Source: an uncultured Gemmatimonadota bacterium (GTDB lineage: Bacteria > SM23-81 > DAOVCL01). Taken from it: a stretch of 13,093 nt of DNA. Below, piece by piece: positions 1 through 1,558 of this stretch. The DNA is taken from positions 1 to 13,093 of the forward strand of contig CAZVGK010000052.1 of NCBI GenBank assembly GCA_964626665.1, written 5' to 3'. Positions within the stretch are counted from its first letter, which is position 1. The number at the start of each line of letters is the position of its first letter. The position numbers and the translations under genes are program-made. The notes beneath the pieces are model-generated. The model saw nothing but the letters and a program-made list of their open reading frames with translations, was not told the origin of the DNA and made no database searches.

Positions 1-300
1 AGTTCCTATCAGTTCCATTTGGTATCTTGCCACTGCCTTAGACCCCGTCGGGTTCTCGTAACCTCGCCACTCTCGGTTAAGAGAATACTGCCTGCTGCCA
101 AATGAAGGGCATCGGCCTCCAAGACGCTGGTTATTTCGGGGCTCAATACATTCACTCTCGTTGCGGCCCGATACCTCCCGCCTCCCAGCTTCACACAGCT
201 CGTTACCTCCCTGTGCGTGGGATTTGGTGCTGGGCTGGTGGCTAACCTTTGCCCAGACCAGACTTGCACTGGTAAGAACTAATAAGCTTCCTCGGCGCAC
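1..300 (-). mobile_element. Group II intron, 5' part (domain I; IIB-like bacterial class), truncated by window edge
   Basis: Minus strand starts at 300 with the consensus 5' boundary GTGCG(CCGAG). It carries domain-I-like motifs (AGTGCAAGTCTGGT, TTGAGCCCCGAAAT, GCCGA-TGCC-loop-GGCA-GCAGGC) and ends in GGAACT at the edge. Loop UCAUUU (105-100) pairs with the last 6 exon nt AGAUGG (306-301), as expected for EBS1/IBS1. RT ORF and domains V/VI are outside the window; subclass is from recall of motifs and is not certain. Confidence 0.88.
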
Positions 301-320
301 CCATCTTTCTTCCCTCCTCC
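301..320 (-). CDS. 5' exon stub of an intron-interrupted, cassette-like gene: RBS plus ATG-G
   Basis: Minus strand reads GGAGGAGGG (320-312)-AAGAAAG-ATG (304-302)-G, then the intron boundary. Product unknown because the 3' exon is outside the window. Confidence 0.6.
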
Positions 321-340
321 ATTTCTCAATAACCAATTTC

Positions 341-453
341 GCCTAACTCGTTTATATCCGCATTGCAGATATTCCTCCAATTTAGGGGTATATACGCAAT
401 GCATATATCCTTCCGATTTGGTGGTATATGCGCACTATTACAGATATACCACC
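341..453 (-). other. Putative attI-like recombination site with GTTRRRY core
   Basis: GTTAGGC at 347-341 (minus). It is preceded by roughly 18-bp periodic TATA/GATAT boxes, a perfect 10-bp inverted repeat GGTGGTATAT/ATATACCACC (420-429/444-453) and an imperfect IR centred on GCATTGC/GCAATGC (360-366/396-402). Lies directly 3' of the integrase stop. Confidence 0.62.
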
Positions 454-466
454 CTATGGATGAGTC

Positions 467-1558
467 TTATTTACCTCTTGGTGCACCACCTCCTTTCTCC
501 TTATTTTGAAATATCTCATCCAATGGGCTTCTTATCGCCATAAGAGCTTTGTTGGTTACATGAGTATAAATTTCTGTAGTCTTGCTGCTCTTGTGTCCTA
601 AAAGTTCCTGAATGTATCTTAAGTCTACCCCATTTTCTAAAAGATGAGTGGCAAAACTATGTCTTAAACTATGTATTCCAACATTCTTTCTTATATCCAC
701 TTTCTGTATGGCTTGCTCAAATATTGCTTGTGCTGTCCTTGTAGAAATGTAACCGCCAAGTTTTGCCCCAGGGAACAACCACCCTTTAGGTTGATACTTC
801 TTGCAATATTCTCTAAGAACCTGAAGAGCTTTCTCTGAAAGTATCGTATATCTGTCTTTTCTTCCCTTTGCTCCTTTGATATGGATCAACTTCCTCTTAC
901 TATCAATATCCTCGAGTTTTAATTTTACCACCTCACTTACTCGCAAGCCCGCAGAATATACCAGCATCAAGATTGCTTTATGTTTGAAGTTATCAACATT
1001 AGACAAGATTCTTGCTACTTCCTCCTTGCTCAACACCACAGGTAATTTCTTATCTTTGCGGGGACGCTTTATCTCATAAGTAAATTTCCTCTTGAGGATA
1101 GTGCTATAATAAAATTTCAAGGCATTAATGGCGGAGTTAAGTGTTGAAACGGCAACTCTCTTCTTTTCCACAAGGTGGAAAAGATAATCCTTAATGTCTC
1201 CTTCTGTAACATCCTCTGGCTTTTTGCCAGTGACATCTATAAAATTCGTGTTGTAATAAATATAGGCTTTGATTGTTCTTGGGCTGTATCTCCTTGATAC
1301 CATTTCTTTTCGTAAGTCCTTAAAGAAAGTCTTATCTCGTCTTAAAGCAGGATCAATCCAAACAGGATCATGCTTGAAAATATCAAGGAGCCTTTTTATT
1401 ATAACCTCAGAATGCGGGAAAATCCAGCACTTTCGTTTGGGATCCCACCTGTATCCCCTTATGCTCTTAACCTTTTCGATATAGATGAGATTATAGGGGA
1501 TAAAAACTGTAATTTTGTCCTCCTGCCCGATGGTTATTTTGATCTCGCTCTTTTTCAT
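467..1558 (-). CDS. Tyrosine recombinase, integron-integrase-like (N-terminal HARP-like extension + SAM-like domain + catalytic domain)
   Basis: Complete catalytic set: GLRVSE, KGRKDR, HSLRHSFATHLLE, LLGH, EIYTHV. Also IntI-like YSPRTIKAY, KLPVVLSKEEV and C-terminal SPLD. Visibly AT-richer than the housekeeping genes. Confidence 0.93.
   Translation of the reverse strand: MKKSEIKITIGQEDKITVFIPYNLIYIEKVKSIRGYRWDPKRKCWIFPHSEVIIKRLLDIFKHDPVWIDPALRRDKTFFKDLRKEMVSRRYSPRTIKAYIYYNTNFIDVTGKKPEDVTEGDIKDYLFHLVEKKRVAVSTLNSAINALKFYYSTILKRKFTYEIKRPRKDKKLPVVLSKEEVARILSNVDNFKHKAILMLVYSAGLRVSEVVKLKLEDIDSKRKLIHIKGAKGRKDRYTILSEKALQVLREYCKKYQPKGWLFPGAKLGGYISTRTAQAIFEQAIQKVDIRKNVGIHSLRHSFATHLLENGVDLRYIQELLGHKSSKTTEIYTHVTNKALMAIRSPLDEIFQNKEKGGGAPRGK

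Follow-up and report, generated by a model that had tools for sequence, protein, structure and literature searches.

A group II intron clade found at translation start codons, with a putative start site of its own in domain VI

Intron, repeat and recombinase at the end of the window

The window, the whole stretch of 13,093 bases analysed here, forms the beginning of contig C52 in a 63-contig assembly (genome G000). On its minus strand, from position 300 down to position 1, it holds a group II intron, of which the 5' part is present; the intron lies in sense orientation one base past an ATG (304-302) that is the presumed start codon of the interrupted gene. Since the window consists of the first 13,093 bases of the contig, the intron is truncated by the contig end. 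Upstream of the intron and on the same strand lie a Shine-Dalgarno-like (SD-like) motif, a repeat element (repeat R) and the gene of a tyrosine recombinase, and then queH, ruvB, ruvA, ruvC, a YebC-family gene and other housekeeping genes. The features at this end of the window are as follows:

1..300, minus strand: 5' part of a group II intron (domain I onward), from the RF02005 match and the continuation in contig L126
96..111, minus strand: EBS1 hairpin with stem UGCC/GGCA and loop CUUCAUUU, from the Rfam structure line and covariation
301..304, minus strand: last four bases of the 5' exon, ATG (304-302) plus G (301), IBS1 positions -4 to -1
312..320, minus strand: Shine-Dalgarno-like GGAGGAGGG, 7 nt (AAGAAAG) before the ATG
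336..464, minus strand: repeat R, three tandem units of 36-39 nt, imperfect palindromes, ending in GAGTTAGGC
467..1558, minus strand: tyrosine recombinase of 363 aa, Xer/IntI-like, from NF040815, TIGR02249 and an IntI4 alignment

The intron starts with GTGCG (GUGCG in the RNA) at 300-296, and GTGCGCCGAG runs from position 300. An Rfam search returned a full-length match to RF02005 (group-II-D1D4-6) at 266..33 on the minus strand, with 125 bits against a gathering score of 49 bits and an E-value of 1e-35. Direct reading of the minus strand confirms the arrangement SD-AAGAAAG-ATG-G / GTGCG, in sense orientation, that had been given in a preliminary description of this DNA. The description had also assigned EBS1 to UCAUUU (105-100), which lies within the loop CUUCAUUU (107-100) between the closing strands UGCC (111-108) and GGCA (99-96), and had paired it with AGAUGG, the last six exon bases, through four Watson-Crick and two G-U pairs. 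This assignment is correct, as the hairpin is part of the Rfam structure and covariation is seen in the relatives described below.

Repeat R sits between the recombinase gene and the SD of the exon, and its terminal GAGTTAGGC (349-341) contains a GTT at 347-345, 45 nt upstream of the intron. Further copies are located at C57:57-185, C19:4432-4522, C25:14006-14071, C33:18151-18215 and C41:21399-21475. In general, the element comprises two or three units of about 36 nt and always ends in a GGATATAAAYGAGTTAGGC-like sequence, with a different sequence after each copy. Compensatory differences between the copies suggest that it forms a hairpin. No arrays of the GTTAGGC-bearing element were found in the 63 contigs, where it stands singly at each of six loci. 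The copy on C25 lies directly downstream of a recombinase remnant, and the copy in the window lies beside the intact recombinase gene.

The recombinase scores 238.6 bits on the Xer-type model NF040815 (cut-off 220) and 230.6 bits on the integron integrase model TIGR02249 (cut-off 265). Its best PDB match is IntI4 (2a3v, E 2.4e-44), in which residues 181-247 (67 aa) hold the IntI-specific domain; in the recombinase, this region is replaced by residues 252-276 (25 aa). Short matches to its C-terminal 50-110 residues, 43-64% identical, occur on contigs C2, C25, C59, C47, C5, C24, C4 and C28 and suggest repeated truncated recombinase remnants. Neither the recombinase nor repeat R was found in two same-genus genomes (G001 and G002), which gave only weak partial matches. 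The preliminary description had set the intron within an integron and its gene cassettes, a frame for which we find no support: the recombinase lacks the IntI insert, stays below the TIGR02249 cut-off and passes the Xer-type model, and repeat R is single rather than arrayed in the 63 contigs, so that the locus was not filed as an integron. The recombinase is treated here as a neighbour of the intron rather than as a part of its system.

The intron is continued in L126, a public metagenome contig found by a scan with 27 bases of the window's 5' exon. All 13,093 bases of the window recur in L126 with 100% identity, and the contig supplies 1,468 bases more of the intron. Directly past window position 1 it reads CGGGAG; the preliminary description had predicted CGG or TGG at this point, and the CGGG found there provides the predicted closing of CCGAG by CUCGG. 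The predicted reverse transcriptase (RT) gene is also present downstream, 71-76% identical to the RT of G002, though it is spread over three frames. At each of the two frame changes stands a copy of a 16-nt palindrome (L126 13880-13895 and 14148-14163) that replaces a few RT codons and shifts the frame; the 63 contigs contain no further copy of it. L126 ends within the RT gene, ahead of domain V, and neither RVT_1 nor GIIM matched anything in the binned genome itself.

The 3' exon of the window's own copy is absent from the assembly and from L126. Furthermore, no second contig end with a domain VI tail is present among the 63 contigs of G000, and the 5' exon region has no counterpart in G001 and G002. 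The gene start at the window copy therefore rests on its SD-ATG context and on the rule that emerges from the family. Contigs of run X19 join the intron 5' end (window position 304) to other upstream sequence, which hints at further insertion sites in related populations.

The intron family and its insertion sites

A full-length relative of 1900 nt (L018) is present in the same-genus genome G002, where it follows the 5' exon AAGGAGGTTAAAATGA. Its domain V matches RF00029 with 56 bits, a bulged A is located at -7, and its RT of 439 aa reaches 381 bits on TIGR04416 (cut-off 300 bits), with RVT_1 as the sole match over the Pfam cut-off. RTs of the clade measure about 439 aa and have no endonuclease domain, and whole introns of the family span 1871-2044 nt. 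A scan with the G002 RT, using one genome per species, gave 129 confirmed relatives, and 79 loci were kept. According to the record titles, the hosts include Omnitrophota, Planctomycetota, Aerophobetes, Thermodesulfobacteriota, Dehalococcoidia, Elusimicrobia, WOR-3, Actinomycetota, Methanoperedens, ANME and others. The clade is thus widespread, with hosts in many phyla of bacteria and a derived branch in archaea.

At the six sites that were inspected first (two in G000, one in G002 and three in the unrelated genome G050), the sequence is SD..ATGR / GTGYG throughout, and the three G050 copies all follow SD..ATGA. To describe the target more broadly, we located 63 distinct 5' junctions, each with at least 25 nt of exon. 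Loci with a contig end before the junction were left out, as were those whose best GYGYG candidate agreed with fewer than 7 of 10 consensus positions (L051, L082, L086, L089, L090 and L094); L066 repeats the G002 locus and was counted once. Fifty of the distinct junctions are of the GTGYG type, and 42 of these have ATG at -4 to -2, compared with 1 in 64 by chance, followed at -1 by A (38 junctions) or G (4). Among the eight GTGYG junctions without ATG at these positions, one has GTG. The 13 distinct junctions of the GCGYG type, which are mostly archaeal, include ATG in a single case, the rest having ACACAG- or ACGCGG-like exons. An SD-like 4-mer, counted 4-18 nt upstream of the ATG, is present at 38 of the 42 ATG junctions, against 1103 of 8051 (13.7%) for all ATGR in the same loci.

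On the other side of the intron, the 3' exon opens with A at 58 of 62 junctions, a count made without removal of duplicates. In 31 distinct copies, both junctions, a start codon at -4 to -2 and at least 150 nt of 3' exon were available. In 27 of them, in-silico splicing gave an ATG frame that stayed open for 60 codons or more, or up to the end of the locus, versus 3 and 6 for the other two frames, and only short ORFs resulted in the other four (L035, L062, L069 and L066, the G002 copy, which faces a convergent gene). Many of the spliced products begin like signal peptides. By these sequence criteria, the start-codon sites of the clade are real gene starts. The earlier proposal that the intron may home to translation starts, made there for cassette genes, is supported in a more general form, with homologues strongly enriched at start codons (42 of 50).

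The loop homologous to UCAUUU of the window covaries with the exon across the relatives:

EBS1 UCAUUU with IBS1 AAAUGA, GAAUGA or AGAUGG: several lineages, including the window
EBS1 UCAUAA with IBS1 UUAUGA (three sites) or AUAUGA (two sites): five sites in one genome
EBS1 UCAUGG with IBS1 CCAUGA: eight sites in another genome
EBS1 UCAUGU with IBS1 ACAUGA or AUAUGA: L046 and L027
EBS1 UAAAGA with IBS1 UCUUUA: L056, which has left start codons
EBS1 CUGUGU with IBS1 ACACAG: archaeal branch

More specifically, UCAU, which pairs with AUGA, is constant throughout the start-codon group. The pairing of UCAUNN with NNAUGR makes the start codon itself the core of the target. The presumed EBS2 loop behaves differently, with no covariation with the exon and a mean helix of 4.6 at an intron's own sites versus 4.56 at those of other introns. 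Some lineages have an anti-SD-like sequence in the loop that follows GAGCCCCGAAA (UCUCCA, UUCUCCUU, UCGCC), and the UAACCA loop of the window, its presumed EBS2, has only 3-4 nt of complementarity. Given this result, the SD may be read in another way, or it may reflect the survival of insertions at true starts; the sites would then carry an SD through targeting or through selection after insertion.

An RT tree drawn without support values, with its root at the two most distant members, places the non-ATG members within the ATG-targeting group. Introns of the archaeal branch (Methanoperedens and ANME; L036, L045, L052, L057, L060, L061, L063, L099 and others) start with GCGYG and lie in CACAG- or ACGCGG-type repeats, away from start codons. 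At L044, a further intron 5' end is found a few bases past the 3' end of the first copy.

A second copy, an empty site and the domain VI tail

The source genome G000 contains two copies of the intron. The first 242 intron nucleotides recur, 100% identical, at the end of contig C40, where the 5' exon reads GGAGGAGGAG-A-ATG-A / GTGCG. In independent public run contigs (X1), these common 242 nt have about twice the depth of the unique flank (243.6 versus 121.6). Past intron nucleotide 242, the C40 copy enters another repeat, which also ends contigs C1, C38 and C41. This IS-like element begins CAGGGATTCCACC (C40:23170-23221), and both of its junctions with the intron are found in independent run contigs, at window-equivalent positions 59 and 62 and with a similar inverted end, which identifies it as an IS-like element inserted into domain I of the second intron copy. 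This interruption and the broken RT gene of L126 both come from metagenome assemblies of a population.

The sole intron 3' end in G000 is located at the end of contig C57 (...GGAGGTTGAAAAGATGTCTACTCGAC / AGAGTAGAC...) and includes domains V and VI. The same-genus genome G001 has an orthologue of the C57 gene that lacks the intron and reads ...GCGATGA / AGAGTAGG. The block upstream of it agrees with the exon on C40, so that C57 pairs with C40, and this orthology rules out C57 as the 3' partner of the window copy. The occupied site of G000 reads ...ATGA / intron / AGAGTAGA, and the orthologue confirms the exact empty site ATGA / AGAG. The IS-interrupted copy on C40 and C57 still heads an intact ORF of 865 aa, which encodes a patatin-like protein with a lipoprotein-type leader and which the ORF finder starts at an ATG in domain VI. 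Domains V and VI and in-frame 3' exons, both predicted earlier, are thus seen in the relatives and in this second copy.

A further trace of the intron is found at the following gene:

C31, about 33214 (L109), minus strand: 905-aa gene with the start ATG-ATG-TCT-ACT-CGA-C and no intron

This intact gene starts with ATGA, TGTCTACTCGAC and AAAGG, and the 12 nt in the middle equal the last 12 of the intron. Its orthologue in G002 has the upstream region in common and reads ATGAGAAAAAAGG, without the 12 nt. We regard them as the probable scar of an intron loss that would have been tolerated in frame. A lone group II domain V/VI lies at C5:18860-18931 (L008 1501-1572; RF00029, 50.4 bits). It has neither an RT nor an SD-AUG tail, was not used as part of this intron, and is probably a remnant of another one.

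In bacterial members, domain VI is made up of GUGAGGGGC, a hairpin with AGGAGG, and AAAAG-AUG-UCU-ACU-CGA-C, after which the splice site follows. A phase-independent search of the final 30 nt at 51 distinct 3' junctions of the bacterial type found an ATG near the 3' splice site in 46 of them, at a distance of 13 nt (43), 16 nt (2) or 19 nt (1); the longer tails carry whole extra codons. The five junctions without it are L056, L087, L089, L090 and L094. An SD-like motif lies ahead of this ATG in 36 of the 51 junctions and is missing from the 3' tails examined in a Planctomycetia genome. From the domain VI AUG, three (rarely four or five) codons and one base lead to the 3' splice site. Between ATG and splice site the exon has one base, and between AUG and splice site the tail has 3n+1, so that the reading frame of the host gene is identical for either start. 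In genome G061, each of the 11 copies heads an ORF that begins at the domain VI ATG, with lengths from 98 to >500 aa.

The predicted fold places the SD in an apical hairpin and the AUG in the basal stem, with a branch-point-like bulged A 7 nt from the 3' end. The conservation of the base-paired AUG could therefore be partly structural, and ribosome binding would be expected to compete with helix formation. The archaeal branch keeps the in-phase domain VI AUG, but only 6 of 16 3' exons are open from it. From the tail as a whole, together with the IS-interrupted copy, the probable scar on C31 and the split RT gene of L126, we infer that the domain VI AUG may be used for translation and that expression of the host gene is probably independent of splicing. 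The preliminary description had held that the interrupted gene would depend on splicing for its expression. With an SD and AUG of its own in domain VI, in phase with the exon, and an IS-interrupted copy that heads an intact 865-aa ORF, such dependence is unsupported and probably wrong.

Interpretation and comparison with known group II introns

We consider it likely that the window carries a member of an intron clade that targets start codons and has an in-phase SD and AUG in domain VI, which would leave the host gene translatable from spliced and unspliced RNA. The anatomy of the intron, its target pattern, the covariation, the frame relation, the exact empty site and the probable scar are demonstrated. 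On this basis, the intron would use translation starts as a safe harbour. From spliced RNA, the host gene would be translated with its native N-terminus, and on unspliced RNA the domain VI start would serve directly and add MSTR/MSTH-like residues to the protein.

Alternatively, the clade could consist of ordinary splicing-dependent introns in which the domain VI AUG is merely part of the branch-point helix. The AUG does pair with the 5' strand of domain VI in the predicted fold, its in-phase position is conserved in archaea even though few of the exons there are open, and splicing is plausible in the relatives, where domain V and the bulged A are intact. A purely structural role, however, sits poorly with tails whose length variants (13, 16 and 19 nt) differ by whole codons, and with an SD-like motif at start-site distance in most of them (the Planctomycetia tails excepted). 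It also does not fit the IS-interrupted copy, which heads its intact ORF from the domain VI AUG, or the 12-nt scar kept in frame in the intact 905-aa gene, and we judge splicing dependence to be unlikely.

The locus can also be read as an integron-associated intron, with the recombinase as integrase, the GTTAGGC element as attI or attC, and the interrupted gene as the first cassette. The IntI4 match, the shared orientation of the recombinase, the GAGTTAGGC-ending site and the gene, and the different sequences that follow the five other element copies agree with it. They are set against a recombinase that has 25 residues in place of the 67 of IntI4 at the IntI-specific domain and passes the Xer-type rather than the integrase model, an element that occurs once per locus on six contigs without arrays, and two same-genus genomes with only weak partial matches to either component. 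The intron relatives, moreover, occupy ordinary gene starts in many genomes, and an integron association is very improbable. A different possibility is that the SD and ATG are carried by the mobile unit, which would then begin upstream of GTGCG and whose sites would not be host starts. BLAST similarity between the two G000 copies does reach 24 nt upstream of GTGCG. However, the upstream sequences differ among sites, save for purine-rich SD-like runs, and the intron-less orthologues in G001 and G002 already have SD..ATGA together with the same upstream promoter-like block. We give a carried SD-ATG almost no credence.

The usual picture is that bacterial group II introns persist by keeping out of genes or by sheltering behind terminators, in attC sites or in other mobile DNA. 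If the start-codon reading is true, landing on the start codons of many genes with a replacement start would be a distinct route to harmlessness for a retroelement, and a natural case of a branch-point helix that doubles as a translation-initiation region. For annotation, gene callers would start such genes at the AUG of the intron, as the ORF finder did here, and scars would add MSTR-type N-termini. For gene targeting, an EBS1 that reads AUG would offer a ready-made handle on gene starts.

Neither generic targeting of SD-ATG nor a domain VI start turned up in the open-access literature; subscription papers or supplements may hold a description. The excerpts of Gomes et al. 2025 (PMC12584367), citing Michel et al. 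2007, describe a proteobacterial lineage of subgroup IIB1 at start and stop codons, which includes Avi.groEL and EcKTE56.groEL and is defined by a subdomain Ia of 300-700 nt at the base of domain I. The members studied there lie in the stop codon of groEL, which the first base of the intron rebuilds; with a length of 3228 nt, EcKTE56.groEL encodes an RT of CL1 type and is found in a single conserved proteobacterial gene (PMC12584367). The clade described here resembles this lineage, as far as those excerpts go, in its tie to codons, with 42 of 50 junctions one base past ATG, and in its frame-preserving insertion. In contrast, it has no subdomain Ia, with about 27 nt between GUGCGCCGAG and the first domain I helix AAGUCUGG. 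Its introns are shorter than EcKTE56.groEL (1871-2044 nt), with a 439-aa RT in which RVT_1 is the sole Pfam match, they occupy up to 11 different genes per genome, and their hosts span many phyla.

RmInt1 homes to one site in an insertion sequence (PMC1802570). With RmInt1-type endonuclease-less introns of class IIB, the present clade shares an RT without D and En domains and, presumably, EBS-IBS-guided retrohoming. The start-codon target and the domain VI start set it apart, neither being reported for RmInt1 in the excerpts of PMC1802570.

Three target specificities, namely homing sites, terminators and attC sites, are listed in the excerpts of Zimmerly and Semper 2015 (PMC4424553), and IIC introns insert downstream of terminator hairpins or at attC sites (PMC4424553; PMC12584367). 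No array of sites that would fit an insertion of the IIC-attC type was found in the 63 contigs, and the relatives lie at ordinary gene starts. Tentatively, and as a possibility to which we lean somewhat less than halfway, the clade may represent a fourth strategy, in which endonuclease-less introns take the initiation region (SD-AUG-R) as a generic safe harbour and bring a portable start in domain VI, with translation and splicing coupled. If so, genes would stay translatable from unspliced or dead copies, and intron loss would leave 12-nt 'STR' scars at N-termini. Relative to IIC and IIC-attC introns, as they appear in these excerpts, the clade is alike in using a generic recurring signal as a harmless landing place and in its short EBS-IBS pairings, and it differs in lying inside the transcription unit, in sense orientation at SD-AUG-R, with a domain I that matches RF02005.
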